Shown in pieces: positions 540 through 49,739 of a stretch of 59,683 nucleotides of DNA. Under the pieces are notes generated by a model. The model was given only the letters and a program-made list of their open reading frames with translations. It was not told where the DNA came from and did not search any database. The position numbers and the translations under genes are program-made. The DNA is from a virus (lineage: Duplodnaviria > Caudoviricetes), in IMG/VR virus record IMGVR_UViG_3300030106_002282, positions 1-59,683 of that record; one strand, 5' to 3'. Positions within the stretch are counted from its first letter, which is position 1, and every line of letters begins with the position of its first letter.

Positions 540-612
540 GCAATATATTATCTGTCACTAGTGAAATAAATACTATGCTCACAAAGTGCTATCAAATAAT
601 ATGTTCTTGATG

Positions 613-642
613 TTGCGTTCTGGTGTGTCTTGTGTTTATAAT
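613..642 (+). promoter_or_regulatory. Sigma70-like early promoter
   Basis: TTGCGT(613-618)-18 nt-TATAAT(637-642) at the head of the + strand operon. Confidence 0.65.
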
Positions 643-645
643 TAC

Positions 646-950
646 TGCATGGACAGACAACAGCGACTTTTGACACTCCCTTCTTTAAGGGTCTTTCGTC
701 ATGCAATATGCGGATTAAAGTGTCATTTGTTGCAGGTCGGCTCACAGCGATTGTCCTAAAACAGTGAGGGTTCTCTAGGTCTGCAACGAGCAGGGTACGA
801 TGAACGATACAGGTCGAGCAAAAGCCATGACACCTGTAATCCCTTTTGCGGTTTAGTAGTGACGTTTGGAATAATTACTGCGATAGGGAGACTCCCTCCA
901 GAGTCCACGAATTAACGTGCCGAAGAGAATCCTAATTATGGGGTTCAAGA
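646..950 (+). ncRNA. Unidentified highly structured RNA / 5' leader with pseudoknot
   Basis: Helices 671-677/719-725, 678-682/687-691, 729-738/778-787, 741-745/764-768, 808-814/832-838 crossed by 818-824/843-849, 890-894/901-905, 906-909/916-919, 927-933/940-946; G-U pairs favour the + strand; no + strand ORF in the track. Confidence 0.55.
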
Positions 951-978
951 AACTCTAACTAATGGAGGTTAGAAAATT

Positions 979-1119
979 ATGACAAAGCAAGAAGTAGAAA
1001 ACTTAATTTCTAAAAAGAAACAAGAACGAAAAGAAATTAATGCGGAACTTATAAGACTGCAGAAAATTAAAAATGACCTTTTTCAAGAAGAATTAATCAA
1101 TTCTTACATGAAATGGTAA
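979..1119 (+). CDS. Small coiled-coil hypothetical protein (46 aa)
   Basis: ATGGAGGT RBS at 962-969; MTKQEVENLISKKKQERKEINAELIRLQKIKNDLFQEELINSYMKW. Confidence 0.7.
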   Translation: MTKQEVENLISKKKQERKEINAELIRLQKIKNDLFQEELINSYMKW

Positions 1120-1121
1120 TA

Positions 1122-1221
1122 GCCTACTGACGTGCTAGTGAAATTCTAGCGAAACGCATTAAATAGATTTAAGTCTAGCCTGTAAAAAGGTTGCTTCTAG
1201 GTGGTTGGCAATAATGCCAAC
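1122..1221 (+). ncRNA. Hammerhead ribozyme, type I, degenerate core (HHR1)
   Basis: Stem I GCCTA/TAGGT; CTGACGT (A9 to U); stem II GCTAG-TGAAATT-CTAGC; GAAA; branched stem III; UUC at 1195-1197; 3' hairpin 1204-1221; same layout as HHR2. Confidence 0.65.
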
Positions 1222-1252
1222 TATTTTAATAACTAACTAATGGAGGTTAGAA

Positions 1253-1666
1253 ATGAAAATAAATTTTATAGAAATAGCAGGATATGAAAGTATTGATGCC
1301 AATATAGATTTCATTAACAATGAAATAACTCCTGTTGATTACGTGAAAAACTTTTCATGTAATGCAGTTCCTGTTGAAGGTGGCGGTCTTTGGTATTCCT
1401 ATACATTTAATAATTTGCTCGTGACTGTTATCTGTCACCCAGGTTCTATTGGTGGTCTTAGCGGTAAATGGGAAATAGGTATCAGAAATAAAGATACAGG
1501 TGAATGGTTAAATGTTCCTAATGGATATATTTCCACAAGTCAGGGAGGTGTCGAGGGTTGGAAATCTTGGAATGAAATCCAGATAATCCTTAAAAAAATT
1601 CTTGCTGACGCTATGGAAGAAATTCGTTTAGAGAGTAAAGAGCCACTTACCTTAGAAGATTTATAA
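1253..1666 (+). CDS. Hypothetical early protein
   Basis: 137-aa ORF with ATGGAGGT RBS at 1240-1247. Confidence 0.8.
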   Translation: MKINFIEIAGYESIDANIDFINNEITPVDYVKNFSCNAVPVEGGGLWYSYTFNNLLVTVICHPGSIGGLSGKWEIGIRNKDTGEWLNVPNGYISTSQGGVEGWKSWNEIQIILKKILADAMEEIRLESKEPLTLEDL

Positions 1667-1766
1667 ATCAACTGACGAGCCTGTGAAATTCAGGCGAAAC
1701 ATTAAACTAGTATCCAGTAATGGACTAACCCTATACGGGTGTCTTGGTGTTAGCAATTTTGCTAAC
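1667..1766 (+). ncRNA. Hammerhead ribozyme, type I (HHR2)
   Basis: ATCAA/TTGGT stem I; CTGACGA 1672-1678; GCCTG-TGAAATT-CAGGC stem II; GAAA 1696-1699; ACA/TGT stem III enclosing two hairpins; GUC triplet 1741-1743; 3' hairpin 1749-1766. Confidence 0.85.
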
Positions 1767-1804
1767 GAATTCTAACTTGGGAAAAAAAAAGATGGAGGTC
1801 TTAT

Positions 1805-2854
1805 ATGAAACCAAGTCAAGCGATACTATCGATGAAATCGATATTAAAGGGTTCTAATACTCCTTACCTTCAAGGTAAGCCAGGTATTGGAAAAAGTGCA
1901 ATTGTTAGGAAACTAGCCGAAGAATTTGCAGAAGATAGAGAGATTGTAAATTCAATTAATCCAACTAAAAAACAGTTTGGGTTTATTGATTTCAGATTGT
2001 CTCTTTATGAGACTGTTGATTTAGGCGGGTTGCCTTACATAGACGAAGATAACCAACAGAAGAGAGCCTTTTTAGGAAATCTTCCTGTAGGTGGCGAGGG
2101 CATATTATTCTTTGATGAATTTGCTCAGGCTCATTCGTCTGTGATGTGTGTCTGCGGACAATTACTCTATGAAAGAAAAATCGGAGAGTATGTTCTGCCT
2201 GAAGGGTGGAAGATTGTCTGTGCGGGAAACAGGGCAACTGACAGAGCAGGAGCAAATAAAATTCCTACTCAAGTTAATGACAGGTGTACGATGTTAAATG
2301 TAGATGAAAACATCAACGACTGGATTGCATGGGCAACTGAGAATGATGTAAGTCCTGACGTATTGGGATTCATTAGTTATGAACCTCAGTACCTTTGCGA
2401 CTTTGACCCAAAAATAACGACTCCACAGCCGAGTCCTCGTTCTTGGGTTCGTCTTTCTGATACATTGAAAACGAATCCGCCAAAAGAAATTTTGCAATTA
2501 GTTTGTGAAGGGGATATTGGCGAGACTGCTTCGATTGAATTTCTTACCTTTTTGTCTTTGAAAAATGACTTGCCGAATGTTCAAGACATTTGCGAAGGCA
2601 AAGACGTAGAAATGATTGACGAGGGCGGTAAATCTTATGCTCTAGTTTGTGCATTAGTTTCGATTCTTAAATCGGAAATAGATAATCCAAACGTAGCTAA
2701 TTATTTTCAAAATAGTCTTAACTATGTTGAGAAATTACCTACTCCAGAATTTGCGATTTTCTATGTTCGTTCTTTGATTGGAGCAATACCAGACTTAGCA
2801 GAAACTTCTACTTATTCTGATTTCAAAATTAGAAATCAAGATTTAGAAGTCTAG
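1805..2854 (+). CDS. MoxR-like AAA+ ATPase
   Basis: Walker A GKPGIGKS, Walker B ILFFDE, AGNR sensor, PSPRSW; followed by a VWA protein. Confidence 0.85.
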   Translation: MKPSQAILSMKSILKGSNTPYLQGKPGIGKSAIVRKLAEEFAEDREIVNSINPTKKQFGFIDFRLSLYETVDLGGLPYIDEDNQQKRAFLGNLPVGGEGILFFDEFAQAHSSVMCVCGQLLYERKIGEYVLPEGWKIVCAGNRATDRAGANKIPTQVNDRCTMLNVDENINDWIAWATENDVSPDVLGFISYEPQYLCDFDPKITTPQPSPRSWVRLSDTLKTNPPKEILQLVCEGDIGETASIEFLTFLSLKNDLPNVQDICEGKDVEMIDEGGKSYALVCALVSILKSEIDNPNVANYFQNSLNYVEKLPTPEFAIFYVRSLIGAIPDLAETSTYSDFKIRNQDLEV

Positions 2855-2868
2855 GTTGAAAAATGAAT

Positions 2869-2923
2869 TGGGCGAGATGTAAAAAAATATTATTCGCTAG
2901 TGAATAAAATTACATCTTGCTCA
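2869..2923 (+). other. Long intergenic hairpin upstream of HHR3
   Basis: TGGGCGAGATGTAA/TTACATCTTGCTCA 14-bp stem with a TCGCTAGTGA motif copy near the apex. Confidence 0.6.
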
Positions 2924-2929
2924 CTTCAA

Positions 2930-2986
2930 TATCTGATATTGGAATGTGTATTCCAACTGACGAGCAGGAAACTGCGAAATCAGATA
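2930..2986 (+). ncRNA. Hammerhead ribozyme, type III (HHR3)
   Basis: TATCTGA/TCAGATA stem III; AUA triplet 2936-2938; TTGGAA-TGTGTA-TTCCAA stem I; CTGACGA 2957-2963; GCAG-GAAA-CTGC stem II; GAAA 2976-2979; complete canonical core. Confidence 0.93.
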
Positions 2987-3016
2987 ACTTTTATCTAACA
3001 GAATGGAGGTTCTAAA

Positions 3017-4003
3017 ATGGATAAAAAATTAACTAATACCTTATCGGAAAACTGTATGTTGGTACGTCTTACTGCAAGACATCCTTCAGGCATTAAGGTC
3101 GATAAGAAGTTAAGAAGCGATTTAGCGGTTGATACGAAAGTATCTGACGATAAATTGTTAGGTGTTTCTAAACATATCTTTGGTCGAAATATCAATAAAG
3201 AGTTTCGCCAAATTTTAGATAAGTTTAGAAATGACTTTTATAAACCTTTAACTTTACCCTGGGACGATTCTTCTTCCCTTGACGAAGAGGGAAAAGTTTT
3301 ATCGGAATGGCGACTTTGCCCTAACACGAATCTTGAGCGACTTCAGTATGAAGTAGACCAAGCGACTCTTGTCTGGGATAAAGAAGTTCAAGGGTTTCTC
3401 AGAACCTATCCTAAACAAATGGAAATGGCGAAGAGAAATTTGGGCGATGCTTTCAGAGAAAGTGATTACATGGATTTTGACAAATTAAGACAAAAGTTTT
3501 TGTTTCAATTTGAAATGACTCCTGTTCCTACTTTCGGAAACGATATCAGACTTAACGTCTCAGAAAAGTTAAGGCAGAGAATAGAAGCGGATGCGATTAA
3601 TCGCCAAAGTAAAAACATCAATAACGTAATGACAATTACTGTTGATGCTTTGCTAGAGCAGGTTAATCACGTTGCAACTAAACTCAAAGAGTATGACCCT
3701 GACAATAAGCAGAAAGGCGGATTCTTTAACAAGTCTAGTTTCGAGAAATTGAGACAAGCGGTTGAAGTGCTACCTTCTATTAATCAGGACGTACTAGGCA
3801 ATAATCAAAATATTGCTGACGCTCATCAAAGTCTTTGTTCTGTTCTTGCAACAATAAATTCTGTTGATTCTCTTAGAGATGAAACAGATTTAGGGAAGCA
3901 AAAACGTGGACAGGTTGCTGAAGGTCTTGAGCGGTCTGTTGATGGACTGAAAGGCAATTTGTTCGACAAAATTTATGGAGGTAAGAAAGATGAAAACTCT
4001 TGA
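3017..4003 (+). CDS. Helical hypothetical protein (DUF3150-like partner of AAA/VWA modules)
   Basis: 328 aa, LTLPW motif, lies between the AAA ATPase and the VWA protein; family assignment from memory. Confidence 0.6.
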   Translation: MDKKLTNTLSENCMLVRLTARHPSGIKVDKKLRSDLAVDTKVSDDKLLGVSKHIFGRNINKEFRQILDKFRNDFYKPLTLPWDDSSSLDEEGKVLSEWRLCPNTNLERLQYEVDQATLVWDKEVQGFLRTYPKQMEMAKRNLGDAFRESDYMDFDKLRQKFLFQFEMTPVPTFGNDIRLNVSEKLRQRIEADAINRQSKNINNVMTITVDALLEQVNHVATKLKEYDPDNKQKGGFFNKSSFEKLRQAVEVLPSINQDVLGNNQNIADAHQSLCSVLATINSVDSLRDETDLGKQKRGQVAEGLERSVDGLKGNLFDKIYGGKKDENS

Positions 4004-5339
4004 TTCCATAATTAAGGCTAGAGCAAAATTGATGAAAGGGCATATTGGCATGGCTAGTATGCTCCTTAATCTTGACTTGGTTGAATGTGAAGAATCAAAG
4101 TGCAATACGATGGCAACAGATGGTAAAAACATTTTTTACTATCCGCCTTTCGTGGATAAATTAACTGAAGCAGAATTGCGAGGTGTACTTGTTCACGAAG
4201 CGTTGCACGTTGTTTATGAGCATCCACTAAGACGTGGTAAACGTCATCCTAAAGTATGGAATATTGCTTGTGATTACGTTATCAATGCTTACTTGTATTG
4301 GGATTTAGGTTTTGAATTGCCTTTTGGCGGTTTACTTGACCATAAATACAAGGGTTGGTCTGCGGAAAAGGTCTATCAACATTTAATTAAAAATGAAAAT
4401 GACCTGCAAGAAGCAATTGAGCAAGTCAAACAGCAGAATCAAGATGCGGACATGGAGGACGATTCGCAAGATTCTGAAATACCAGACACTAGTGAAGAAA
4501 ATATTTCTGAAGAAGCTGACGAAGATAGCGAAGCCGATGGCGGAGAATCTGAGTCAATTGATTTAGATGCTATTCCTTCAACTATTGGCGAGGTATTAGA
4601 TGCAACTGACGATGAAGGAAAGCCTTTGAGTGATGCTGAGATTCAAGAAATTTCAACTGAGATTCAAAGAGCAGTAGCCTTATCTGACAAGTTAGAAATA
4701 GCTGTTGGAAGCGGTACTAATTCATCTTGCGGTGGCAGAATGGAAGAATTGAAAGAAACTTCAATTGACTGGAAAGAGCAATTGAATGACCTCTTACGTT
4801 CTTCTTTTGCTAACGATTATTCGTGGTCGAGACTGAATAAAAGGTTTGCTTGGCAGGGTTTAAATTTGCCGAGTAAAACTAGGTCTCCGCAAGGTGGCGA
4901 ATTAGCGGTTGCAATTGATACTTCAGGTTCTGTATCTCAATACGAATTGAATAAATTTGCTACTGAGATACAAGCTATGGCGGAGGACTGCGGTCTTGAA
5001 AAAATCAGAGTTTGCTACTGTGATACAACTGTTCGTAAAAATGAGCAGGGGGAATGGTGGGATTACTTTGATTTATCTTCTGGCGATGAATTGGAATTAG
5101 CAGTTCGTGGCGGTGGCGGTACAGAGTTTGACCCTGTATTTAATCTGCTGAATGACTACACTGATGATGCCGAAGATATTCAGGCGATGGTCTATTTTAC
5201 AGATGGTTGGGGAGACGTTTCTGAAGACGTTGAACCTGATGTTCCTGTGTTTTGGTGTTGTACTGAAAAAAGCAGTTATTCGGAACGTCTTGCCTTTGGC
5301 GAGGTGGTCTATGTAGATACTGCTAGATTCTACGACTAA
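3990..5339 (+). CDS. DUF2201-like metallopeptidase plus VWA domain protein
   Basis: TMATDG, HEALH zincin motif, WNIACD, acidic linker, MIDAS DTSGS, GGGGT, FTDG; start chosen from ATGGAGGT RBS at 3975-3982. Confidence 0.85.
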   Translation: MKTLDSIIKARAKLMKGHIGMASMLLNLDLVECEESKCNTMATDGKNIFYYPPFVDKLTEAELRGVLVHEALHVVYEHPLRRGKRHPKVWNIACDYVINAYLYWDLGFELPFGGLLDHKYKGWSAEKVYQHLIKNENDLQEAIEQVKQQNQDADMEDDSQDSEIPDTSEENISEEADEDSEADGGESESIDLDAIPSTIGEVLDATDDEGKPLSDAEIQEISTEIQRAVALSDKLEIAVGSGTNSSCGGRMEELKETSIDWKEQLNDLLRSSFANDYSWSRLNKRFAWQGLNLPSKTRSPQGGELAVAIDTSGSVSQYELNKFATEIQAMAEDCGLEKIRVCYCDTTVRKNEQGEWWDYFDLSSGDELELAVRGGGGTEFDPVFNLLNDYTDDAEDIQAMVYFTDGWGDVSEDVEPDVPVFWCCTEKSSYSERLAFGEVVYVDTARFYD

Positions 5340-5350
5340 AAACTTTCTAT

Positions 5351-5391
5351 TAGCGAGTGATATTTGAGGGGTACTCAGATATCACTTGCTA
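5351..5391 (+). other. 18-bp intergenic hairpin upstream of HHR4
   Basis: TAGCGAGTGATATTTGAG-GGGTA-CTCAGATATCACTTGCTA. Confidence 0.65.
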
Positions 5392-5434
5392 TTAGTTTTG
5401 CCCTCTATGAGCCTGTATGGAGGTCTAATTTTAA

Positions 5435-5521
5435 AAACTGATAGCAAAATGTGTGTTTTGCCTGATGAACGCGAAAGCGTACCCTTCTAGGAGGGTGGCT
5501 CAAAAGAGCCGAAATCAGTTT
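5435..5521 (+). ncRNA. Hammerhead ribozyme, type III variant with two inserted hairpins (HHR4)
   Basis: AAACTGA/TCAGTTT stem III; AUA 5441-5443; GCAAAA-TGTGTG-TTTTGC stem I; CTGATGA 5462-5468; extra hairpins 5469-5480 and 5481-5496; GGCTC-AAAA-GAGCC stem II; GAAA 5511-5514. Confidence 0.8.
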
Positions 5522-5548
5522 AACTAACTTTTATAAGATGGAGGTCTT

Positions 5549-5821
5549 ATGAATGATTTAAATATGAAGGTATTCTATAAAAATGTTTATGGTAATGACC
5601 TTTGCTATCCTTTTTGCAACACTGCAAAGAAATTCGCAAAGTTAATTGACCAAAAAACTTTTAATAAATACCACTTGGAAACAATAAAAACTTTGAAATA
5701 TAAAATTGATATTGTTGCTTATAATCCTAAACAAAAAGATGCTTGGGACACTTCTGCTAAATGGATTAAAGAGGATATGAAAGAAAATCCTCAGAGATAC
5801 CAAAACAAGGAGGAGTTATGA
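5549..5821 (+). CDS. Hypothetical protein
   Basis: 90-aa ORF with ATGGAGGTCT RBS; KNVYG..YP motif recurrent in phage proteins. Confidence 0.75.
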   Translation: MNDLNMKVFYKNVYGNDLCYPFCNTAKKFAKLIDQKTFNKYHLETIKTLKYKIDIVAYNPKQKDAWDTSAKWIKEDMKENPQRYQNKEEL

Positions 5822-6018
5822 CTGAGAAAATCATTTTAATTTTAGGTTCTATTTGTATATGTGTTTTCACTACAATTGCTTATTCTCAAGCAGATTATGT
5901 GTTTGAGAATGGTTATCCATCACAAGCAAATTTGCTGATTATTTTTTCGGCAGGTTTGTTCGTGGGTATTTCAATTGCAACTGTTTTTTCCAGATTATTT
6001 TATGGAGATAAAACATGA
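5818..6018 (+). CDS. Small two-TM membrane protein
   Basis: Two hydrophobic segments; ATGA overlap with the upstream gene. Confidence 0.7.
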   Translation: MTEKIILILGSICICVFTTIAYSQADYVFENGYPSQANLLIIFSAGLFVGISIATVFSRLFYGDKT

Positions 6019-7066: not shown

Positions 7067-7268
7067 TGTGAATAACTCTTGTATCTTGCTTCCTGGGTTG
7101 CATCCTGGAAAAAAAATATTCACTAGTGATATATATTTACTGCGTTCTAGCGTGGGTGTTTTTTTACAGCTAAAAACACAACAAAATTAATTTTAGTTCC
7201 TGCGTGAATAATATTTTTTTTACCTGTGGATAAACCTGTGGACAAACCTGTGTATAAACTGTTAATAA
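7067..7268. promoter_or_regulatory. DnaA-box cluster (candidate origin or DnaA-binding locus)
   Basis: TGTGAATAA 7067-7075, TGTGGATAA 7225-7233, TGTGGACAA 7237-7245, TGTGTATAA 7249-7257, TGTTAATAA 7260-7268; same orientation, 11-12 bp spacing in the main array. Confidence 0.65.
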
Positions 7269-7400: not shown

Positions 7401-7669
7401 ACTAGTTTTTTCGCCTAAGAATGATAGTCGATTATAGAAATATGATAGTCGATTGTCTGTACCAAAACCTACTGCTGTGTTATTACTCCCGAACACGAAG
7501 CTCCAAACCACCAATTTTTTGTCTAAAAGGCTCTGAAAGGTAATTCTCATCACCAGTGAATAATATTTTACAGATTCCGTTTGGAGCTGTGGAAATCAAC
7601 TAATCTGTGGTGTTGGTTTCACATGAAACATAGCTTTCAATGTGATAGCTTTTTGCTTATAATAATTAG

Positions 7670-7996: not shown

Positions 7997-8228
7997 GTGT
8001 TCGCAAGAGACTTATGAACTTGCTCATGCACTTGCAAAGAAAGAAAGTCGTTCCCTAAACAAACAAATAATCCACATGATACACAACGAAGCCGATGTAA
8101 AGGGTGTTGAACTTGAAGAAGATACTGCTGAAGAAGAAGGTAAAATGATTTATTCTGGCAGTTTACCTGAACCTGCTAAAGGTTTGTCAAGGCTTGTTGA
8201 AACAAAGACACAGGACTTTCCTGATTAA
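7977..8228 (+). CDS. Arc/Mnt-like ribbon-helix-helix regulator
   Basis: KNLFIRCSQETYELAHALAKKESRSLNKQIIHMI matches the Arc-family beta-strand plus RSLN pattern. Confidence 0.75.
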   Translation: MKNLFIRCSQETYELAHALAKKESRSLNKQIIHMIHNEADVKGVELEEDTAEEEGKMIYSGSLPEPAKGLSRLVETKTQDFPD

Positions 8229-8715
8229 CATACCAAAAATCTAGCAAAGCGTTAGCACACTCAGAAGTAGTAGCTATCTGGGAAGCGTTTACTCGGTTGG
8301 GGTTATCCGACATGATTCTCCAAAAAACTTTTTCTTTTTCGCCACCGCAGACATCCTTAATCAATCTTTGAACTCCTATCAAGATACAGGCTTTTGGGAC
8401 AGGCTTGGTGTAATTACTTTCACCAGTGAATAATATTTTTTCTAACCCTGGTGCACTCGCAAAACATCCCGATTGGGAAATAATACCTAGATATTTGTTG
8501 CAGACGTTGTGTTGTTTTGCATCCAGATAATCTTCATGGAACATTACGTCTATGATGTGTTGGTCAAGGACAATGGCTCTGCCTAGTTTTGTTTCATCTA
8601 TTGACCGCACACAGACTTTGTGACGTTCATGCAGGTTTGGACTGCCGACATCGTTTAGATGCAGGGTTTCAGTCGAAATCCCAATCGTAGTCGTCTTGGA
8701 CTTCTTCGGCTTCAT
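8176..8715 (-). CDS. Hypothetical protein
   Basis: Long ORF overlapping the primase 3' end; start uncertain. Confidence 0.65.
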   Translation of the reverse strand: MKPKKSKTTTIGISTETLHLNDVGSPNLHERHKVCVRSIDETKLGRAIVLDQHIIDVMFHEDYLDAKQHNVCNKYLGIISQSGCFASAPGLEKILFTGESNYTKPVPKACILIGVQRLIKDVCGGEKEKVFWRIMSDNPNRVNASQIATTSECANALLDFWYVNQESPVSLFQQALTNL

Positions 8716-14018: not shown

Positions 14019-14214
14019 AGACAAAAATCAAAAGTCGGACACTACTAAGTGTCCGCAAAGGGAGGGTTTAGAAAAAATACACAATCATATAGAGCATTGT
14101 ATAACTCACTTTGAGTCAGCAAATGACAACAATCAGGAGATACCTATACACAGTTATAAGATGGTGTTGTATGAACTCAGCGAAATGACAAAAAAACTAT
14201 TAGCTAGTGAATAA
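13975..14214 (+). CDS. Hypothetical protein
   Basis: ORF in operon context; start uncertain. Confidence 0.45.
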   Translation: MKLNLKFLMMISPFKDKNQKSDTTKCPQREGLEKIHNHIEHCITHFESANDNNQEIPIHSYKMVLYELSEMTKKLLASE

Positions 14215-16084: not shown

Positions 16085-16394
16085 TTTATAAAAAAGGAGA
16101 AGAAGATGAAAACTAAAATTAAATATGCAGGAAAACTTACTGCCAAAACTTTAAAAGATTTAAATAGAAACCTAAACAGGAGAAAAAAATGAAAGATTAT
16201 AAGAATTACATAATTATTGGTTTGCTGTTATTTATTATAGTTTGCTTTTGTTATGTGGCATATAGTGTCGAAATTGTTTTAATATGATTTACCATTTTGA
16301 CCTACTGCTGTATTTTACTAACCTCTGGTTTTTGCCAGGCTGCGAAATAATATTCACCAGTGACTGTAAAATCAATCTATCAGAGCCATGAAAA

Positions 16395-18262: not shown

Positions 18263-18630
18263 GTATGTTAGTTGAACAGTTGCAAGAGGATTTGCAAGAA
18301 AGGAAGGCGGATTGGTGGAAATGGCACAAAGCCAATCCTAAAGTTTGGGATAAGTTTGAGGAGTACACCTTAGAAGCTATTGCTTCTGGTCGAAAACACT
18401 ATTCACAATGGGCGATTATCAACAGAATACGTTGGCATAGTGAGATAGAAACTAAAAGTGGCGAGTTTAAAATCAGTAATAACTACATTAGCTTTTATGC
18501 TAGGTTGTTTCATGCCCGTTATCCCGAACACTCTGATTTCTTTAGATTAAAACCATTTAAGGAAGAAAAGATGATAGCTGACTTAGAAAGGGTTGATATT
18601 AATAACAGGGAGTTCGGCTCTTTTTCTTAA
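18259..18630 (+). CDS. Conserved phage hypothetical protein
   Basis: H..NP.V..F, IINRIRW, FKISNNY..YARLF pattern. Confidence 0.7.
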   Translation: MSMLVEQLQEDLQERKADWWKWHKANPKVWDKFEEYTLEAIASGRKHYSQWAIINRIRWHSEIETKSGEFKISNNYISFYARLFHARYPEHSDFFRLKPFKEEKMIADLERVDINNREFGSFS

Positions 18631-21600
18631 CTCTGGTACGAAAGCTAGTCGTTTATCACGTTCTATTTCCATCTGTCTTAGTCGTTCTGATTTTTCTGCA
18701 ACGGATATATTCTCGTTTCTTAATAAACTATTACGTCTTTCTCTGAAGTTAGCTAAATATCTTTCTAAGGCTCTAACTTGACCTTTGATATCTAACACAC
18801 CTTTTCTATTACTTCTATAAGCTGATAGTTCATCAAATCTTTTTTCTTTTTTTAATGAGTTGATAGTTGCTACTGCTCTATCTACTTCGCCTCGTAATTC
18901 ATAAAATTGTTGTTGCAAACCACCTGATTTATCGTAATCTAAAAACAATCTTCTAAATGGAGTATTCTGTAAAAAACTAGCATTTTTAGGCATTAAAGGT
19001 TCGCCTGTGACTAATCTAGTAATAGTGTCAGATAAAGCTACTGCATAGCCTCCTAAAGTGCCTGTGTACCCTCTAAAAATGTGTTCTATTTTAGCAGGAG
19101 AAATATTTAGTTGTTTTCCTATTTCTTTTGATAGTTGGCTAGTGCCTTCTCTATATTGCAACGCAGGTTCTTTTTGTAGTTGATAGTAAGGTACGATGTC
19201 TTGTTTGGTAAATGAATTTTTATTTATTAATGCTTCTACTATTGGTTTTAATACTTGAACACCACCTGCATCAAAAAAAGGTATTGCAAGAGAAGTACCT
19301 AAACCTCTAGATATAGAAGTTCCTGCTTCTTTAACTGAGCTTCTACTAAAAGCTTCATCTCCTAAAGTCATATCAAATAATCTTTCTGGTATTACTTTAA
19401 ATAAAAATCCAACCTCAAAAGGTATGGGTATTTTTAAAGCATAATTAAAAGCCAATGGTACTATCCAATTATCATCTCTTACTTCTCGTTTAAGGTTTTT
19501 ATATTCATCGCTATCATGTACTAATAAATAATATGCAAGAGTTAGACCTCCTAAAATACTAGCCTTTAAAAGCACATTTTTAAGAATACGACCTTGCATA
19601 TCTTTTAAGTTTTCGCCTTGTTGCAGTTTTTCTGTAGCAGAATATGTTCTTGCAATACCAGAACGATAAAGAATATCTAGACCTTGTATTCTGGCATTAA
19701 AAAAAGGTATTGCAGCAGTAATTATTTTAAATATTGGACTTAATCCTCTACGACCAAAGTTAATTATTTCTAGTGCTTGATAAGCTGCTTCTGATTGTGC
19801 CTGTGCTTCGTTATAACCTTCTTTAATTAATTTTTTATAAACTCCATCATAAACTGCTTGTCTTGTTGCACCATCTGACCTTGTAGTTAGTTCGCCTAAA
19901 CCATCCCAAAGTTTAAAAAATAATTTTTGTGCTGACATTGCGTTATCTGGTGTTAGTCCTTCTCTACGCATAGTTCGAGTAATATATTGTTTAACACTAC
20001 CTTCATCGTTAGAAAAGTCATAGCCACCTAACACACCAAACTTTTTAAGGTTTTCCATATCGCCTATCATATTTTTAAATGAATCTATAACAGGTATAAA
20101 GTCTGCACCTGAAGTAACCATAGTAGAAAAAGTATCTCTTAAAATGTTTACCACAATAAAACCTGGGTCTCTAGTAACAGTTTCTCTTAAAAATCCTGCA
20201 GGCATAGCTAATACTTTTTCTATCATGCCTCTTTGTGTACCACCTACAGCTTGCAAAGCATTTACTAACTCTACATCTACTTCGTAGTGTCTTTTAATGC
20301 CTTCATCAAAAACAAATATAGTATTTAACTTAGCAGATTCTTTTGGTGTTACTTCTCTAGCTTCTCCCATAAGTTCTAAGTCTCTTATAAGTTTTGCTAA
20401 TCCATCATTTTTTAATGATGCAGTAAGTATCGATAAAGAGTTTCTAGATATAGCTTCTAAAGGATTTATATCTAAAGGTTTTTCAGAACCTTCTAAAGAA
20501 ATACTTAATGGATTATTGGGCAAAGAACCACCAGCCACAGTAGGAGCAGTAATATTTGTATCATCTATCATGTCTCGATAAAAAGGATAATAACTAGAAT
20601 GTGCTCGCCAAAGGTCTGCTTGTCCTCTGATATCTATATTATTTTGTACAGCAAACTCTCTAATTTCTTCAACACTTCTGCCACCATTTGCTTTTGATAG
20701 TTGAGTAAATCTTTCTATAGTACCTTCATCTATACCTTTTTCTTTTAATTCTTCTATTATTTTATTGTTAGATTTATATTTGCTTATTAATCCTTTATTT
20801 TCTGCAAAGGTAATTAAAGTATTATTCCAACGCTGATAAGCTTCAAAAACATTTTTTACATCAGGATATTGAACTTCTATTTTTTGTATTAAAGCTAAAT
20901 CTTCTTCTTTAATAGGAGATTTGACTACACGACCATCTTCTAAAAATTGTTCAGTACGTTTTAAACTAGCATAAAATTTAAATATAGCTTCTTGGTCTAC
21001 TTCTGGTCTGCTATAAAGTGGTGCTAATATTTGTATTAATCCACCATCTTCACTTTTAATTACATTTGCTAAAGCAGCTACACCATCTATTTTGTCTGAA
21101 ATAGTGCCAGTTGTAAGTAAACCTTGAAATAAACCTCTAGCTCTATCAGCCAAACGTAAAGCTGCCATTGTAGCTGTATCTGCAGTATTGTTAAAAGCTC
21201 TTACTTGTTCATTTGTTTGCTGACCTTTTAAAATTTTCTTATCTGTTTTATCTAGCTTATCAACGTAATTTTCACGAAAGTTTCTAAAATAAAAACCAAT
21301 ATTAGTCACAGGGTTTTTAAATGTTTCTATTAATCTAGCACCAAAAGATTTTTCTGGAGCTTTTTGTCCACCTGTACGATTAATTCCTGCACGAATATCA
21401 TTATCAACACCATCTAAAGTAGGTTTAGACCAATTAGGTATGTCATCAGGTACAGACATATTAGGGTCGTTTTCAAAGTCTATAGCTACTTTTAAAGCTA
21501 TATCAGAGGCATTTGTATTGTATCTAGGTATACCCCCTCTAGGTTGTGATTTCGCCTGTTCTTCAGCCTTTGTGACAGCTTCTCGTAGCTGTATGCTTTC

Positions 21601-24600
21601 TGATGAATTATTATTTTTGTTATATCTAGTGCCTTTAGAAAACAAAGGTATGTTTCCAGAAGGTGCAAGTGTGTCTGGTCGAGTAGCAACCTCTACTGCA
21701 TAATCTAATTTTTCTTCAGTTTGACCACTATCTCTATGTAAAGGTGCTATTGGTCCTAATTTATTTATAGGAAGAATAAAATTATTAAACTCATTTTCTA
21801 CTAATCCTTGATATTGATTTTTTAAAGAAGTAATACCTTGTTCTTGTAAAGTTTGACCATTAGGATTAGGTATACCTTGTTCCATTCTGCCTTGAGGAAA
21901 ATGTATAAATACAGGAATAGTTCTACCACCTCCTTGTCCTATTAATGCAGCTCTATGCCTACCTTCATGTGCAATTACTTGACCATCTCCTTCAATCAAT
22001 AAATTTGGCAATGAAGAAGTTGAAGCAGTATTTATAGAATCTGCTATTTCTGGGTCAAATACAGCACCTCCTAAAAAATCTCTAAAATTTCTTTCAGAGT
22101 CTGCGGGTGCTGTTGGACCTTTTTCTACAATTTCATCAATTTGATTTTTGCCAGTTGTTGTAAGTTTTAAAAAATCATCAACTTGCATTCTTGCAACATG
22201 AGTTAAAGGTATTTCTACTCCATTTTTAAAACCCACCTTAAAACTACTAAATCTTCTTATCTGTCTACGATTAAAGTCCATATATGGAGGTTGTGTTTCT
22301 GTAGCTGCTCTACTAAATAAAGGTATATCTTGAGATACTTGTGGCAGTCTATACATAGTATCTCTATAAGAAAAATCTTTATTTCTACCTTTATTTTCTA
22401 CAAAACCAAATCTTTTATAAAAAGTTTTTAATCTATTTACAGAAGTTGCACCAAAACCTTTGCTAGGAGTTAAGGTAATAATTTTATTATTAACATCTGC
22501 ATAGTTTGTTAAGTCATTCATTACAGAAGTTCCTACTCCAATATTTTTTTCAGGGACTATTATTTTAGATAATGTAATATCATTTTCTGTTTCAGATATA
22601 TCAAGTTCAATATTTTCATTTATATATTTATTTTTTATATCAGAAACTCTACTAAATAAAGGCACATCATCAGGTGGTGCTCTTAATTTTTCTTGCGTTA
22701 CTTCAGGGTTATAAAATATATCTGCTGCATTATTTAAAAAAGCTGCAAACTCTGTATCTAATCTAGCTGGTAAATTTAAAATATCTCTAATGGCTTCAAC
22801 AAATTTATTCCAAACAGTTTTTTTACCTTTATCATCATATGGTATGTTTTCTAAAAAGTTTTGAAATGGTCTATGTGTTAAACCAAATGTAATAAATTCA
22901 GAAGAATCATCAGATTTATCTTTTGCTGATTGTTTGCCCTTAAGAAAATAATTTATAATTGACCCATTCCATTTTTTTAGGTCATCATCTTTCCCAGTAA
23001 TTTCTTTATTAGCAATAGCCATTGCTAGTGACCGCAAAATAACATTATTATCTAAATCTTCACGATTATATTTGTCGCCTGGTTTTCTGGTTTTCTTATA
23101 ATTTTTGTAATCTTGAAGAAGAACAACTTTTTGATTTTCAATATAATTTAAAACTCTTTGTCTTTGTTCATCTAAATTTTCAAATGCTTTGATAGTTTTA
23201 GCAGAAAGTATTTTTTTTGGAACTTTAGAATTTTGTTTTTTTTGTGCTTCAAATAATTTTAATTGTAAAAGACTGGAAGAATGTAAAGTTTCATGCAAAA
23301 TAGTTTCAAAATCCAAACCAGTTTTTGAATTAATAACCATTTTCATAATTTTAGGTGAATCTTCAAAAAAAAGAAAATTGTCTGTTATACGATGACTAAA
23401 TCGAAACTCAACTCGACCCGCAGCTTTAACTGAAGATATAGTAAAAGGTAGTTCAACTCCATATTTTTTTAACTTATTTAATGTTTCTAAAGACTTAGTA
23501 GCTAAAATTCTATAATCTTCACTAGGAGAATTTTTAATAAACCATTTTAGCATTTCTATAGTATCACCACTAGTTCTTACATCTTTACCTTCGCCTATTC
23601 TGTCAGCTTGGTTTACAGTAATTACTCCTGCAGCAGCTAATCCATATGCAATATGAGCCTCTTCCATAATTTTTTCTTCTTGCGTTCTTTTTGTAGAATC
23701 ATAAATAGTATTAGGAATAGATGTAGTTTCTATAGCTGGCTCTTCAGGTTTTACAGGAGGTCTAGCATCTGGAACTTCAGGTTTTACTTCTGGCTCAATA
23801 GTCGGTTCGTCAACTACAGGTGGAGGTGGTGGAGGCGGAGGTGGAGGTGTTGGTCTTATAGGTGCTAAAGGTTCTAATCTGCTAAGTTCTTTTGGTGTTA
23901 ATACAGTATCTATTAAAGCACCTTGTTCTGTTTCTTCAACAGGTTGTTCTGCTTGTGCAGCAGCTCTTGCAGCATCTCTATCTCTTCGGTCTTTTTCTGC
24001 TTGTAAGTCAGCAGGTAACTGACTTATAGCTGCTCCTCTATCTAGCTCTCTAGTAGTTCTTAATTCACCTCTAGCTCTACGACCAACACGACCTTGTTCT
24101 ATTTCAGCAAATACATTGGCTACATCTTTGTAACCAGATAGACGCATGGCTTGTCCTATGCCTTTAAAAAATTCTATAAATTTGTTAAAGATGCCATTAA
24201 CTTTGTTTGGCATGGTTGGACCAATATCTTTAGCACGATACATTTCTGCTATAGCTTCTTCAATGTATAGTTCTTCTGCTCTTTCATCGCTTATACTTAA
24301 ACCTGCTTGTCTACGAGCCTCTATTGTTTCTCTATTTATATCAACTGCTCGGTCATAAAAAGTTTGATTAGCAAATCTTTCATCAAAATCTTTAGGAACT
24401 TTTCTTTTTTTAACTAATCTTCGTAAATAGTTATATTCAGGTTCTGTTAATAAATCTTTAGCTCTTAGTGCATGAATAATTTCGTGGTTAACTACACTCC
24501 TTAAATTTTGTTCTATTTCTGCATCAGTTGCATTGCCATCAGGATTAACAGCATTTAAAGATAAAAAGATGATGTCAGTGTTTCTATCATATTCTCCTTC

Positions 24601-26877
24601 CACAGCTGCTTCTCTGACTTCTCTAGGGTCAAAAGCTACACCTTCTGTTGTTTGTCTGAGAGTTGTAGTTGATAAAATATCATCACTAACTACTACTCCT
24701 GTGTCTGATAAACCAAACTTATCTAATTGTTTTCTTACTTCTTTAGCAAATTTGTTAGTTCTGCCTTCTTCAACAGCTTCAGCAAAGTTAATTAACTTTG
24801 GTTCTATTTCTGCTGGCGGTAAAACTTTTTCTTGTCTTACAGTTTCTTCTTCTATTAATTTAGCTATAACATCCTCAGATAAAGTGCCTTGTTCTCTAAG
24901 ACTTGCACCAAACTCTTCTGGTGTTTGGTCAAAAGCTTCTGCTCGTCTAGCTATTTCAAACTCAAAATTATCTTTTATTTGATAAGCACCTTTATCTTTT
25001 AAGTATTCTGCTCGACCACTAGTTTTTAAATCATTAATAAATCTAGCAGCTTTTTGTTTGTCACCATCAAAAAAAGTTTCTGTATCATTTAAAGTAAATG
25101 GAGTTTTTTCTATTCTAGAAACAAAGTCTGCCATATCTTTTGCAGAATATTCTCTAGGTCTAAAATCAGGAAAATCTTGTTTTTGATTAAATTTAGGAAG
25201 GGCGTGTAATCTAGAAACTAATAATTCTTTTTGACCTTTACTCATACTTTTTAGGTCATTAGAACCTGTATAAATTTTAAGGGCATGAGCTACAGCTGGT
25301 GTATTAAAACTAAAGTTATCTATATTTTTAGATGCAGCTAATTCTTTAATATATTTAGGAGTGGTATTAACGCTATCTTTACCTGCAGTTACTGATGGTT
25401 GTCCATTCTTTTCATTAACAACAAATTGTGCTCTAGCTAAAGCACTAGTTAAATCATTAAATTCTTTTTTAGTTAAATTATTTTTAGCTTCTTCTAAAGA
25501 TAAAGGCTTGGGATTATTATCTAAAAACTTTTGTTTAGCTTTATCAGATATTTTAGTTTTAAAAGCAATAATATTATTAGGCGTAACAGTAGTGGCAATA
25601 GGGTCTAGTAACGATTGCCCTATTTCAAAAGCAGTACCGCTATTTATATTGCCTTGTAAATATAATTGTTTGTTTAGTTCTTGGGTAAGTTGTTGATTGC
25701 TGTAGTCTGTAAATAACTCTTCTTTTTTAGTCAAAGCATCAGCTTCGCTAGTAAAAGTTTCAACTATTGGTTGTGTCGTATTGTTGTTATCAACAATAGA
25801 AAAGGTGTTGTTAGGCAAACTAACAACTTGTAAATCAGGTTCTGGTAAGGTTGCTTCAGGTATTACAAGTTCTGGTTTAACAACTTGTGGTATATCTTGT
25901 ACTTCTGCAAGTGTTCCTTGTTCCTGTGCTTGTTGGAATTTTTTTGCTCGTAATAATTGTGCTTTATTTTCTTGTTCACGTTTTATTTTTTCTTCTGCAT
26001 ATTCATTTTTAATGCCTTGCCTTTTTCGACCAAGACTATTTATTACAGCTTTAGCAGTACCACCAACAATACCTCCTATAGTTAGTTCGTCAAAAAAACT
26101 TTCTCCTATAGGCAAGGTATCACTATATAAACCTCTAGCAGTTAAGTCTTGAGCAAGACTTGCTAAAGATTCTTGTGCTCCCTCTGCAGCAAAACCTGTT
26201 GTAAAGTCTTTAGCTATTTGAGTTATACGAGCATTTATTTCAGGATTACGAGCAGCAGACTTAGGCACTTTTTTAAGAAAAGAAGCTATTGGTACAATTT
26301 CAGATAAACCAATAGCACCACCAATAAGCTCAGATAATATTTCTTGACCAGCATTGGCTTCTTCACCCATGTTTCTAGCTATTTCTAATCGGTCTACTTG
26401 TTCCGAAATACCTGTTGGAACAGCTAATGCAGCTGGTAGTCCAAATGTACCTACACTTGGACTTACTACACCTTTCCTAGCTAAAGCACGACCTGCTAAA
26501 CCTGCACCCAAAAATGGTCCAAATGAACCAAAACCTTCAGCTAATTTAGTAGTATATTTATTTCTTATTGATGGGTCAGAAGCAAATATAGAATCTTCTC
26601 TTATATAATCTCTTGCACCTTGTAAACCTTTTACTAAACTACTGTCATTGCCAATATCAAATAGAGCTGCTAAACCCAATGGTGCACCAACAAGTGTAGA
26701 TAAACCACCTCTTACTATTGATTTAGGTGAATCTGCAACTCTATCTAATATAGATACTTTATCTATATCTAAATCATATTGTCTTTTTATTGCACTAGCT
26801 AGCTCAGACCTTTTTACTGGGTCTATATTATCTGGTATATTTACTACCTTTCCATCAGGTAGATTTATTTTTTGCAT
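18583..26877 (-). CDS. Giant polyvalent virion/ejection protein (metallopeptidase, GNAT, ParB-like, LPD38-like)
   Basis: 2764 aa; HEIIH and HETLH motifs, GVGT..FYKRFGF, HEGRHR, C-terminal INFGRRG..PFFNARIQG..IPIPFEVG. Confidence 0.75.
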   Translation of the reverse strand: MQKINLPDGKVVNIPDNIDPVKRSELASAIKRQYDLDIDKVSILDRVADSPKSIVRGGLSTLVGAPLGLAALFDIGNDSSLVKGLQGARDYIREDSIFASDPSIRNKYTTKLAEGFGSFGPFLGAGLAGRALARKGVVSPSVGTFGLPAALAVPTGISEQVDRLEIARNMGEEANAGQEILSELIGGAIGLSEIVPIASFLKKVPKSAARNPEINARITQIAKDFTTGFAAEGAQESLASLAQDLTARGLYSDTLPIGESFFDELTIGGIVGGTAKAVINSLGRKRQGIKNEYAEEKIKREQENKAQLLRAKKFQQAQEQGTLAEVQDIPQVVKPELVIPEATLPEPDLQVVSLPNNTFSIVDNNNTTQPIVETFTSEADALTKKEELFTDYSNQQLTQELNKQLYLQGNINSGTAFEIGQSLLDPIATTVTPNNIIAFKTKISDKAKQKFLDNNPKPLSLEEAKNNLTKKEFNDLTSALARAQFVVNEKNGQPSVTAGKDSVNTTPKYIKELAASKNIDNFSFNTPAVAHALKIYTGSNDLKSMSKGQKELLVSRLHALPKFNQKQDFPDFRPREYSAKDMADFVSRIEKTPFTLNDTETFFDGDKQKAARFINDLKTSGRAEYLKDKGAYQIKDNFEFEIARRAEAFDQTPEEFGASLREQGTLSEDVIAKLIEEETVRQEKVLPPAEIEPKLINFAEAVEEGRTNKFAKEVRKQLDKFGLSDTGVVVSDDILSTTTLRQTTEGVAFDPREVREAAVEGEYDRNTDIIFLSLNAVNPDGNATDAEIEQNLRSVVNHEIIHALRAKDLLTEPEYNYLRRLVKKRKVPKDFDERFANQTFYDRAVDINRETIEARRQAGLSISDERAEELYIEEAIAEMYRAKDIGPTMPNKVNGIFNKFIEFFKGIGQAMRLSGYKDVANVFAEIEQGRVGRRARGELRTTRELDRGAAISQLPADLQAEKDRRDRDAARAAAQAEQPVEETEQGALIDTVLTPKELSRLEPLAPIRPTPPPPPPPPPPVVDEPTIEPEVKPEVPDARPPVKPEEPAIETTSIPNTIYDSTKRTQEEKIMEEAHIAYGLAAAGVITVNQADRIGEGKDVRTSGDTIEMLKWFIKNSPSEDYRILATKSLETLNKLKKYGVELPFTISSVKAAGRVEFRFSHRITDNFLFFEDSPKIMKMVINSKTGLDFETILHETLHSSSLLQLKLFEAQKKQNSKVPKKILSAKTIKAFENLDEQRQRVLNYIENQKVVLLQDYKNYKKTRKPGDKYNREDLDNNVILRSLAMAIANKEITGKDDDLKKWNGSIINYFLKGKQSAKDKSDDSSEFITFGLTHRPFQNFLENIPYDDKGKKTVWNKFVEAIRDILNLPARLDTEFAAFLNNAADIFYNPEVTQEKLRAPPDDVPLFSRVSDIKNKYINENIELDISETENDITLSKIIVPEKNIGVGTSVMNDLTNYADVNNKIITLTPSKGFGATSVNRLKTFYKRFGFVENKGRNKDFSYRDTMYRLPQVSQDIPLFSRAATETQPPYMDFNRRQIRRFSSFKVGFKNGVEIPLTHVARMQVDDFLKLTTTGKNQIDEIVEKGPTAPADSERNFRDFLGGAVFDPEIADSINTASTSSLPNLLIEGDGQVIAHEGRHRAALIGQGGGRTIPVFIHFPQGRMEQGIPNPNGQTLQEQGITSLKNQYQGLVENEFNNFILPINKLGPIAPLHRDSGQTEEKLDYAVEVATRPDTLAPSGNIPLFSKGTRYNKNNNSSESIQLREAVTKAEEQAKSQPRGGIPRYNTNASDIALKVAIDFENDPNMSVPDDIPNWSKPTLDGVDNDIRAGINRTGGQKAPEKSFGARLIETFKNPVTNIGFYFRNFRENYVDKLDKTDKKILKGQQTNEQVRAFNNTADTATMAALRLADRARGLFQGLLTTGTISDKIDGVAALANVIKSEDGGLIQILAPLYSRPEVDQEAIFKFYASLKRTEQFLEDGRVVKSPIKEEDLALIQKIEVQYPDVKNVFEAYQRWNNTLITFAENKGLISKYKSNNKIIEELKEKGIDEGTIERFTQLSKANGGRSVEEIREFAVQNNIDIRGQADLWRAHSSYYPFYRDMIDDTNITAPTVAGGSLPNNPLSISLEGSEKPLDINPLEAISRNSLSILTASLKNDGLAKLIRDLELMGEAREVTPKESAKLNTIFVFDEGIKRHYEVDVELVNALQAVGGTQRGMIEKVLAMPAGFLRETVTRDPGFIVVNILRDTFSTMVTSGADFIPVIDSFKNMIGDMENLKKFGVLGGYDFSNDEGSVKQYITRTMRREGLTPDNAMSAQKLFFKLWDGLGELTTRSDGATRQAVYDGVYKKLIKEGYNEAQAQSEAAYQALEIINFGRRGLSPIFKIITAAIPFFNARIQGLDILYRSGIARTYSATEKLQQGENLKDMQGRILKNVLLKASILGGLTLAYYLLVHDSDEYKNLKREVRDDNWIVPLAFNYALKIPIPFEVGFLFKVIPERLFDMTLGDEAFSRSSVKEAGTSISRGLGTSLAIPFFDAGGVQVLKPIVEALINKNSFTKQDIVPYYQLQKEPALQYREGTSQLSKEIGKQLNISPAKIEHIFRGYTGTLGGYAVALSDTITRLVTGEPLMPKNASFLQNTPFRRLFLDYDKSGGLQQQFYELRGEVDRAVATINSLKKEKRFDELSAYRSNRKGVLDIKGQVRALERYLANFRERRNSLLRNENISVAEKSERLRQMEIERDKRLAFVPELRKRAELPVININPF

Positions 26878-49709: not shown

Positions 49710-49739
49710 AAAAAATATTTAGCAAATACTATTCACTAG

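Follow-up and report, generated by a model that had tools for sequence, protein, structure and literature searches.

The phage genome IMGVR_UViG_3300030106_002282, a record of the IMG/VR database whose whole assembly is a single contig of 59,683 bp (the window, i.e. the whole stretch of DNA analysed here) and which represents a marine tailed phage, carries five hammerhead-type elements within 4.6 kb of its plus strand, three with canonical cores and two with core variants. We consider it probable that this array, as part of the mRNA of an operon, cuts that mRNA and thereby frees insulated cassettes of one or two genes. Elements of the same kind occupy the same gene borders in related phages, their helices covary, and additional hairpins stand on a side that depends on the type of the ribozyme; from these features we infer cleavage itself, the existence of a single polycistronic transcript and a benefit for the phage. 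The five elements are:

HHR0: 900-956, plus strand, hammerhead-like, type III, from the minimum free energy (MFE) fold and the alignment to relatives; predicted cut after C905
HHR1: 1122-1202, plus strand, type I with branched stem III; predicted cut after C1197
HHR2: 1667-1748, plus strand, canonical type I with branched stem III; predicted cut after C1743
HHR3: 2930-2986, plus strand, canonical minimal type III; predicted cut after A2938
HHR4: 5435-5521, plus strand, type III with the canonical core CUGAUGA...GAAA; predicted cut after A5443

HHR1 to HHR4 had been proposed in a first-pass annotation, and both their coordinates and their position on the coding strand were borne out when the four regions were read directly and folded; the cuts it placed after 1197, 1743, 2938 and 5443 follow from standard hammerhead numbering. 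All four of the elements that it assigned to the operon gaps are real, and the fifth, HHR0, had been missed. The CUGANGA core is exact in HHR2, HHR3 and HHR4, but not in HHR1 (CUGACGU, A9 changed to U at 1133) and HHR0 (CCGAAGA, U4 changed to C at 921), and all five elements share GAAA 3' of stem II, the A15.1-U16.1 pair and a nucleotide other than G at position 17. HHR3 is composed of a stem III of 8 bp, a stem I of 7 bp (loop GUGU), the core CUGACGA and stem II GCAG-GAAA-CUGC followed by GAAA, and its hammerhead fold is the unconstrained MFE structure (z -3.47). The overall build of HHR1 (stem I GCCUA/UAGGU; stem II GCUAG/CUAGC, then GAAA) is the same as that of HHR2, and it has a mismatch, C1155/U1195, at 15.2/16.2 in stem III. 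For HHR0 the fold contains stem III AGAGU/ACUCU, stem I CACG-AAUUAA-CGUG and a stem II of 8 bp, with two extra A (947-948) between stem II and G12, ahead of GAAA. Stem II adjoins A9 and G12 in HHR1, HHR2 and HHR3, but not in HHR4, whose stems I and III are perfect and whose MFE structure (z -4.65) includes two extra hairpins; these 28 nucleotides (nt) separate A9 (5468) from G10.1 (5497), which makes HHR4 a variant of the hammerhead family and not a standard member. HHR1 to HHR4 are followed by the next start codon at a distance of 27-56 nt, and the array shows the feature known from clustered phage hammerheads, i.e. several copies close together, on the coding strand and beside phage genes. 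Judged by core, GAAA, cleavage site and covarying helices, HHR2 and HHR3 can be assigned to the hammerhead family, and HHR1 and HHR0 can be placed there with one or two deviations.

A strict descriptor (exact core, stem II closed on A9/G12, GAAA, U16.1, H17 not G, stems of at least 4, 3 and 4 pairs) matches the window twice on the plus strand (HHR2 and HHR3) and never on the minus strand. The mean over 200 dinucleotide shuffles of the window was 0.04 strict matches, with two or more in none of them, and a chance origin of the window motifs is excluded. If an insertion after A9 is permitted, HHR4 is recovered as well, and a tolerance of a single mismatch each in the core and in stem III brings in HHR1, with exactly the coordinates given before, and nothing else in 60 kb. 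Since the one-mismatch descriptor also finds one match in the reversed window, HHR1 is accepted for its homology to intact copies, as the motif by itself would not suffice. An Infernal-type search with the Rfam hammerhead models, put forward earlier as a check, failed to recover the elements: there was no match at gathering score in the window or in 14 of the 62 related loci introduced below, and the best trace, found in an E-value search of 600-6000, was Hammerhead_3 over the HHR2 core with 20.3 of the 48.5 bits needed. This silence is a limit of the models and not a failure of the structures, and since all of these elements fall below the gathering score in Rfam searches, the annotation of similar phage hammerheads is probably incomplete. 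A covariance model (R1) built from type III relatives scores HHR3, itself a training member, at 66.1 bits and matches HHR4 locally with 35.2 bits (E 3.3e-7); this type III model found no further convincing copies in the window. Its match at 3839-3888 (plus strand) inside the gene g3 (19 bits, E 0.013) has CUGUUGA, is without a stem I hairpin and is probably due to chance.

The elements punctuate a block of plus-strand genes that begins at about 979 with g0, g1, an ATPase gene, g3 and a VWA-like gene and continues with small open reading frames (ORFs). If HHR0 is counted, all genes between 979 and 5339 are flanked on both sides by hammerhead-like elements, which gives the following units:

g0: 979-1119, plus strand, ORF of 46 amino acids between HHR0 and HHR1; homologue in 0 of the 62 loci
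g1: 1253-1666, plus strand, ORF of 137 amino acids between HHR1 and HHR2, without Pfam or PHROG match; homologue in 0 of the 62 loci
ATPase: 1805-2854, plus strand, AAA-type ATPase (phrog_1297), one-gene unit from HHR2 to HHR3
g3 and VWA: 3017-5339, plus strand, two-gene unit from HHR3 to HHR4, consisting of g3 (3017-4003, 328 amino acids, no family) and a DUF2201 metallopeptidase/VWA-like gene (3975-5339)

The DUF2201 metallopeptidase/VWA-like gene overlaps g3, which had been described as DUF3150-like; this label has to be dropped, as neither DUF3150 nor any other Pfam family matches g3 at E up to 10. The first base of HHR2 (1667) lies directly 3' of the stop codon of g1 (1664-1666), in agreement with the first-pass annotation.

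Relatives of the phage were recovered via the VWA protein as 62 IMG/VR loci (numbered with the prefix L), 61 of them at 47-95% identity over the whole hit and one distant at 25%, and ATPase, g3 and VWA are collinear across them. In the window and these loci together, a relaxed descriptor gave 225 matches on the coding strand, none on the opposite strand and 4 in the reversed control; a few of the matches, those with large 'insertions' inside genes, are probably false. We delimited gaps by the flanking proteins only, with gap A within 160 nt upstream of the ATPase, gap B between ATPase and g3, and gap C after VWA. In gap B a type III hammerhead is present in 57 of 58 sequences, all but L004, which carries CUGAAUGA; gap C holds a hammerhead in 52 of 52. 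The cores are thus conserved where the flanking genes are, and the syntenic gaps are occupied; cores lost beside conserved genes had been named beforehand as a finding that would speak against the proposal. In gap A the strict count is 40 of 56. The 16 misses comprise 11 core or stem variants, namely L001-L005 with the A9U core of HHR1 but a fully paired stem III, L033-L035 with a type I copy carrying U4C, and L017, L018 and L040 with a canonical core and an imperfect stem II, and five loci without a hammerhead (L046-L049 and L059). When the variant classes are added by pattern, 252 elements are counted in 62 of the 63 sequences, with up to 8 per locus, totals which are slightly low because one pattern missed HHR1 and its A9U relatives. 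Between consecutive elements lie 188 intervals with one ORF (93), two ORFs (74), none (17) or more (4). Such conservation of an array across a lineage, with up to 8 elements per locus, is to judge from these sequences a new point. The association with hammerheads is not a general property of the ATPase-VWA gene pair: in two cultured phages with this pair, Acinetobacter phage At2 and Vibrio phage D505 (2 of 537 records examined), the gaps between the genes measure about 20 nt or less.

For 55 unique type III sequences, picked by a descriptor demanding core and pairing, RNAalifold predicted the three stems unaided, and 13 of 14 pairs show compensatory change. In a 15-pair structure 91.3% of the cells are paired, compared with 61.0% in column shuffles and 40-46% with the partner slid by 1-3 columns, a percentage that is partly built in because the descriptor requires pairing; the covariation score is 0.871, compared with 0.275 after shuffling (0.871 being reached by 0 of 500 shuffles) and 0.07-0.20 after sliding. 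The range of pair types and the near-complete occupancy of the gaps are not built in by the selection. The A15.1-U16.1 pair is invariant in 55 of 55 sequences, G-U pairs that exist on the plus strand only occur in the stems, and the loop I (UGU) and loop II (A) positions vary hardly or not at all, as would be expected for a tertiary contact between the loops. Formal covariation scoring covers type III, and the helices of type I are seen outside this scoring. It is scarcely credible, and the data already disfavour it, that the motifs are decaying relics or chance matches without present function: gap occupancy is all but complete in gaps B and C though the VWA proteins have diverged to 47-95% identity, the opposite strand has no matches and compensatory change reaches nearly every pair, and against this stand two core changes among the five window copies, the silent Rfam models and the single match in the reversed window.

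According to the reading that we prefer, the hammerheads would be transcribed within the operon mRNA and would cut it by internal transesterification, freeing g0, g1, the ATPase, and g3 together with VWA as separate RNAs with 5'-OH and 2',3'-cyclic-phosphate ends. At a type I element the ribozyme body would remain on the upstream fragment and a hairpin would head the downstream fragment; at a type III element the body would remain on the downstream fragment and a long hairpin would close the upstream one. The phage would probably benefit from an insulation of the cassettes, whose stability and translation would then not depend on adjoining ones. The ORF-sized units proposed in the first-pass annotation hold in so far as each would contain one or two genes; the unit with the 137-amino-acid gene may be poorly released at its 5' side because HHR1 has both A9U and the 15.2/16.2 mismatch. 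Hairpins in the window that would form such ends are:

1203-1222, plus strand, hairpin directly 3' of HHR1 stem I, from the fold; would form the 5' end of the downstream product
1749-1766, plus strand, hairpin directly 3' of HHR2 stem I, from the fold
2870-2922, plus strand, long hairpin shortly before HHR3 whose outer stem of 11 bp encloses an AT-rich palindrome; predicted to cap the ATPase fragment at its 3' end
5351-5391 and 5402-5423, plus strand, two hairpins upstream of HHR4, the first terminator-like; conserved in relatives

Type I copies generally start at, or a few bases from, the upstream stop codon and have a hairpin directly 3', and type III copies have a long hairpin upstream and a Shine-Dalgarno site about 20-30 nt downstream; a hairpin likewise precedes the hammerhead in the gap-B sequences inspected (by eye, uncounted). 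The MFE of 45-nt flanks was compared by Mann-Whitney tests, which ignore the relatedness of the loci:

downstream of type I: median -10.8 kcal/mol; p = 3e-6 versus background
upstream of type I: median -5.5 kcal/mol; like background, p = 0.7
upstream of type III: median -8.2 kcal/mol; p = 2e-4 versus background
downstream of type III: median -6.7 kcal/mol; p = 0.023 versus background
background: median -5.7 kcal/mol

The upstream and downstream flanks of type III differ with p = 0.087 only. The side of the hairpin depends on the ribozyme type, which is a new point, and because the ribozyme body stays upstream in type I and downstream in type III, the extra hairpin would always be on the product that is otherwise bare-ended. 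A kissing interaction, in which loop II of type I copies would pair with the loop of the hairpin that follows, was considered and rejected, as it fits HHR2, L006 and L009, but not L001, L025 and L026 (by eye).

Two further features were observed in these flanks. The core of the hairpin upstream of HHR3 is a copy of an AT-rich palindrome centred on CACTAGTG, of which the window contains 8 copies compared with 0.93 expected (2891-2906, 7117-7132, 7547-7562, 8417-8432, 14198-14213, 16351-16366, 37861-37876 and 49730-49745; also 541-567). Palindromes related to CACTAGTG occur upstream of the gap-B hammerheads inspected by eye and, in the type I copy of L001 at 8028-8127, within stem III, and some of the second hairpins in the insertion variants discussed below resemble it; the palindrome may serve as an operator, as a weak terminator or, in the RNA, as a hairpin bound by a protein. 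The other feature is an identical 21-nt leader at 955-975 and 1233-1253, which can be folded into a hairpin whose loop carries the Shine-Dalgarno sequence GGAG, the last Gs of which belong to the stem. The stems at this position differ among relatives (by eye), so that the leader looks like a covarying hairpin around the ribosome-binding site.

Ribozyme processing of polycistronic phage mRNA is in itself not a new idea. It was already proposed by Perreault et al. (2011, PMC3088659), in passages suggesting that clustered hammerheads of prophages cut long phage transcripts into gene-length mRNAs and reporting cleavage of three tandem phage arrangements in vitro and of one in vivo. Like the prophages described there, the present phages have several type I and type III copies on the coding strand beside single genes or short variable blocks, and they share with that set the presence of core variants and of U10.1/U11.1, which is given there as tolerated and is seen in some of our relatives. 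Unlike the arrangements in those passages, the array is here fixed at syntenic gaps around the ATPase and g3-VWA module in a whole marine phage lineage, with up to 8 elements per locus and with hairpins placed according to ribozyme type, and the two-hairpin insertion does not figure in the portions of the text concerned. The sequences themselves may already sit among the metagenome matches of that study or in the published alignments of Eckert et al. (2023, PMC10085705). New in the present set are an array fixed throughout the lineage, end hairpins that depend on the ribozyme type, the coincidence with cassette borders and the variant with a four-way junction. Two other systems offer a functional parallel, as RNase III processes T7 early mRNA and RiboJ is an engineered ribozyme insulator: in both, upstream context is cut away and the cistron gets a defined structured end. 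In contrast to T7, cutting would here require no host nuclease and would leave 5'-OH and cyclic-phosphate ends, and neither system is a family to which these hammerheads could belong.

By established chemistry 5'-OH and 2',3'-cyclic-phosphate ends are substrates of RtcB, and it had been suggested that units cut at both ends are circularised, by the ribozymes themselves or by an RtcB-type ligase. We hold this to be very improbable. The two hammerheads flanking a unit differ in type (I versus III) and in sequence, so that its ends cannot rebuild one ribozyme and self-ligate, and where circular or spliced products are raised as a possibility by Perreault et al. (2011, PMC3088659), the same passages state that they were sought and none found.

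Changes of U4 in a hammerhead core are strongly deleterious. From their sequences, HHR2 and HHR3 are expected to cleave well and HHR4 probably does so too; HHR1 is expected to be slow, and HHR0 slow or dead. U4C arose twice independently, in HHR0 of the window and in the gap A type I copy of L033-L035, and in the HHR0 class, 18 of 19 unique sequences (window and loci) have CUGA, CCGA being found in the window only. The closest relatives of HHR0, in L001, L002, L004 and L005, have CUGAAUGA, with one nucleotide too many around N7, and the copy at the HHR0 position thus deviates throughout the sublineage; with gap B of L004 included, CUGAAUGA is present at two different sites. Insertion after A6 is described as giving low activity (in passages of Perreault et al. 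2011, PMC3088659). A9U is kept in six genomes (the window, in HHR1, and L001-L005) and, according to a portion of PMC10085705, cuts the activity of an artificial hammerhead at least 20-fold, yet it is present in natural cleaving ribozymes.

That such variants persist in several genomes (A9U in six, CUGAAUGA at two sites, U4C twice) could also mean that the hammerheads are down-regulators or conditional switches, in which cleavage exposes the fragments to decay and sets unequal expression, and U4C, A9U, the extra nucleotide at N7 and the four-way junction are versions tuned to be slow or to depend on a factor. However, the presence of structure in the flanks of both products agrees better with stabilised ends than with decay, and although a perfect four-way junction is generally able to take two stacking forms, which may hold for HHR4 too, plain and inserted versions share a site in near-identical genomes (L014/L020; L005/window). 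Passages in Perreault et al. (2011, PMC3088659) consider that slower phage variants may respond to conditions or signals, but no ligand or protein site was identified here, and we regard a switch function as unlikely.

The most unusual member of the array is HHR4, whose interrupted core/stem II region consists of:

28-nt insertion between A9 and G10.1: 5469-5496, plus strand, with hairpin a at 5469-5480 (GAAA loop) and hairpin b at 5481-5496
ancestral stem II: 5497-5510, plus strand, GGCUC AAAA GAGCC, from comparison with L005

As the insertion has no linker nucleotides, it meets stem II and the core in a perfect four-way junction. Fifteen unique sequences including HHR4, from 11 gap-B and 13 gap-C sites, share this build with insertions of 22-40 nt. 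Hairpin a follows directly after CUGANGA and has 3-4 bp and a GNRA loop in 15 of 15, hairpin b is variable with 5-11 bp, and the third hairpin starts with a G-C pair in 15 of 15 and is directly followed by GAAA. No nucleotide between the helices is unpaired, three apparent exceptions being parse artefacts of a second GAAA, and the unconstrained MFE structure of every full insertion-variant sequence is the two-hairpin fold. The added hairpins covary (ACGC/GCGU versus ACGU/ACGU versus CCAC/GUGG; CAC.../...GUG versus UAC.../...GUA); the variants were read by per-sequence folds, and a MAFFT alignment misplaces hairpin b. At the same site L005, which is about 90% identical to the window, has CUGAUGA-U-GGCUC AAAA GAGCC-GAAA, i.e. 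the plain version with a single U where the window has 28 nt, and the third hairpin is therefore the ancestral stem II; L014 and L020 form a similar plain and inserted pair in gap B. One extra nucleotide (U) after A9 is common among the relatives (46 of the 225 relaxed matches) and occurs in some viroid hammerheads. The commonest form of the insertion, CCAC-GNRA-GUGG, was found in 12 IMG/VR contigs, 11 of which were already in the phage family set.

Known hammerhead alignments, as characterised in portions of Eckert et al. (2023, PMC10085705), have at most one or two extra nucleotides at the junction of stem II and core, a statement which the recurring two-hairpin insertion, as read from these sequences, contradicts. 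No report of a larger insertion between A9 and G10.1 was found in a literature search that covered few subscription journals and main texts without supplements. HHR4-type copies resemble natural hammerheads with changes next to stem II, such as one extra nucleotide after A9 in some viroid hammerheads, U10.1/U11.1 (portions of PMC3088659) or A9U (portions of PMC10085705), but differ from these small changes in the length of the insertion and its two hairpins. They are also like the permuted (type-SGC and related) hammerheads in having an unorthodox topology with the same catalytic core; in the account given in the relevant portions of Eckert et al. (2023, PMC10085705), however, permuted hammerheads rearrange the strand order, whereas HHR4 keeps the type III order and adds two helices at the core/stem II border. 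A four-way junction could keep stem II stacked under A9/G12 while the A9 strand crosses into hairpin a, and the metal site at A9/G10.1 would then not need to be lost. In our estimate the chances are evenly balanced that HHR4 and the 14 other unique sequences are active and represent a new hammerhead architecture, in which a four-way junction is set on top of the three-way junction of the catalytic core. Hairpin a could make contact with stem I or III by docking there; alternatively, it could allow a factor to switch the stacking of the junction. If this is true, HHR4 would give the first natural example of a hammerhead whose CUGANGA/stem II block takes up a large insertion, and might be a natural allosteric one; the variant also tests the assumed rule that nothing stands between core and stem II, on which searches for permuted hammerheads are built. 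As a separate observation, one contig, from a relative with about 90% identity, connects 5404 directly with 5496 and thus lacks 91 nt, among them the 5' half of HHR4 and the insertion; it may derive from a relative with a different hammerhead there.

The positions of the hammerheads also mark breaks in homology. Alignment blocks between the window and L001-L005 stop at hammerheads (500-955/977, 1123-1221, 1196-1260), and the last block begins at about 1660, or at 1742 in L002 and L003, and reaches at least 5551. The type I copies, A9U and canonical, stand in opposite order in the window and in L002. Together with the restriction of g0 and g1 to the window, this means that blocks of hammerhead plus leader lie at the borders of cassettes; they may favour exchange, or they may simply be carried along with the cassettes. 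A role at the DNA level, with these blocks as homology linkers for the swapping of single-gene cassettes and RNA cleavage as a secondary matter, would agree with the breaks, with the two window-only genes and with the changed copy order, and passages of Perreault et al. (2011, PMC3088659) describe the flanked genes as not constant. A homology block, however, needs neither an invariant core (found in the type III alignment, for which the descriptor demands it, and departed from, in core or stem II, by 11 of 56 gap-A copies), nor compensatory stem changes that include G-U pairs specific to the plus strand, nor matches confined to one strand, and all three count against this explanation, which we consider improbable.

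Self-cleavage of one long mRNA into cassettes has to be weighed against several points, which include the Rfam silence and the reversed-window match, the pairing percentage raised by the selection of sequences, and the flank tests with their unmodelled relatedness and the modest type III contrast. HHR0 and HHR1 may be slow or dead, so that the g0 and g1 units may stay unreleased, and the activity of HHR4 is not assured because its insertion sits where published alignments, in the portions cited above, allow at most 1-2 nt. A promoter scan, the consensus of which may not be that of the host, found no sigma-70-like site in the gaps; this is a weak point in favour of one long transcript, and the cassettes may have separate transcripts if host promoters differ from the consensus scanned. 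A search of sequencing runs listed no RNA run with the sequence and yielded one run of guessed kind (word share 0.07) with 8 short contigs of a relative about 90% identical, which hold no information on ends or strand.

Upstream of the array, in the divergent region between the small terminase gene (minus strand) and the operon, TTGCGT and TATAAT with an 18-nt spacer are found at 613-642 (by eye; not listed by the scan), and if this site is a promoter, a leader of about 250 nt would precede HHR0. A promoter of a single-subunit RNA polymerase upstream of HHR0 was rejected, as the genome contains the 17-mer of 876-892 a single time and the 9 large ORFs scanned showed no RNA polymerase domain. 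The five loci without a hammerhead in gap A have instead a conserved stretch of about 110 nt that ends in a long hairpin plus a GGG-AAUUAA-CCC hairpin (e.g. L046 at about 3700-3850, L047 at 1850-1990, L049 and L059). The 3' part of this element follows a terminator-like hairpin in L076, L078 and L082; given this position and the absence of an Rfam ribozyme match, we rejected the idea that the replacement in L046-L049 and L059 is a new ribozyme. It is probably a promoter-like site followed by a 5' hairpin, and a promoter and hairpin in place of the gap-A hammerhead suggests that a defined, hairpin-capped 5' end matters there.

The role of genome-encoded bacterial and phage hammerheads was called unknown in a portion of a 2019 review (PMC6765202). 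The lineage described here is an unusually clean test bed for this question: ribozymes flank both gene modules, which are the same throughout, in all relatives examined, plain, one-nucleotide-extended, core-variant and two-hairpin versions occur naturally at one site, and five loci have a promoter-like element instead. The phage itself has no close cultured relative, as a nucleotide search of cultured phages gave no match, and encodes large and small terminase subunits, a primase-helicase, a tail-fibre chaperone domain and a 2,764-amino-acid polyvalent protein. The ORF of the latter (18583-26877, minus strand) has LPD38, a large polyvalent protein domain, as its sole Pfam match. Amid the minus-strand phage genes, a protein of 588 amino acids is encoded at 37080-38846 (minus strand) that combines a CHASE2 sensor with an adenylate/guanylate cyclase domain.

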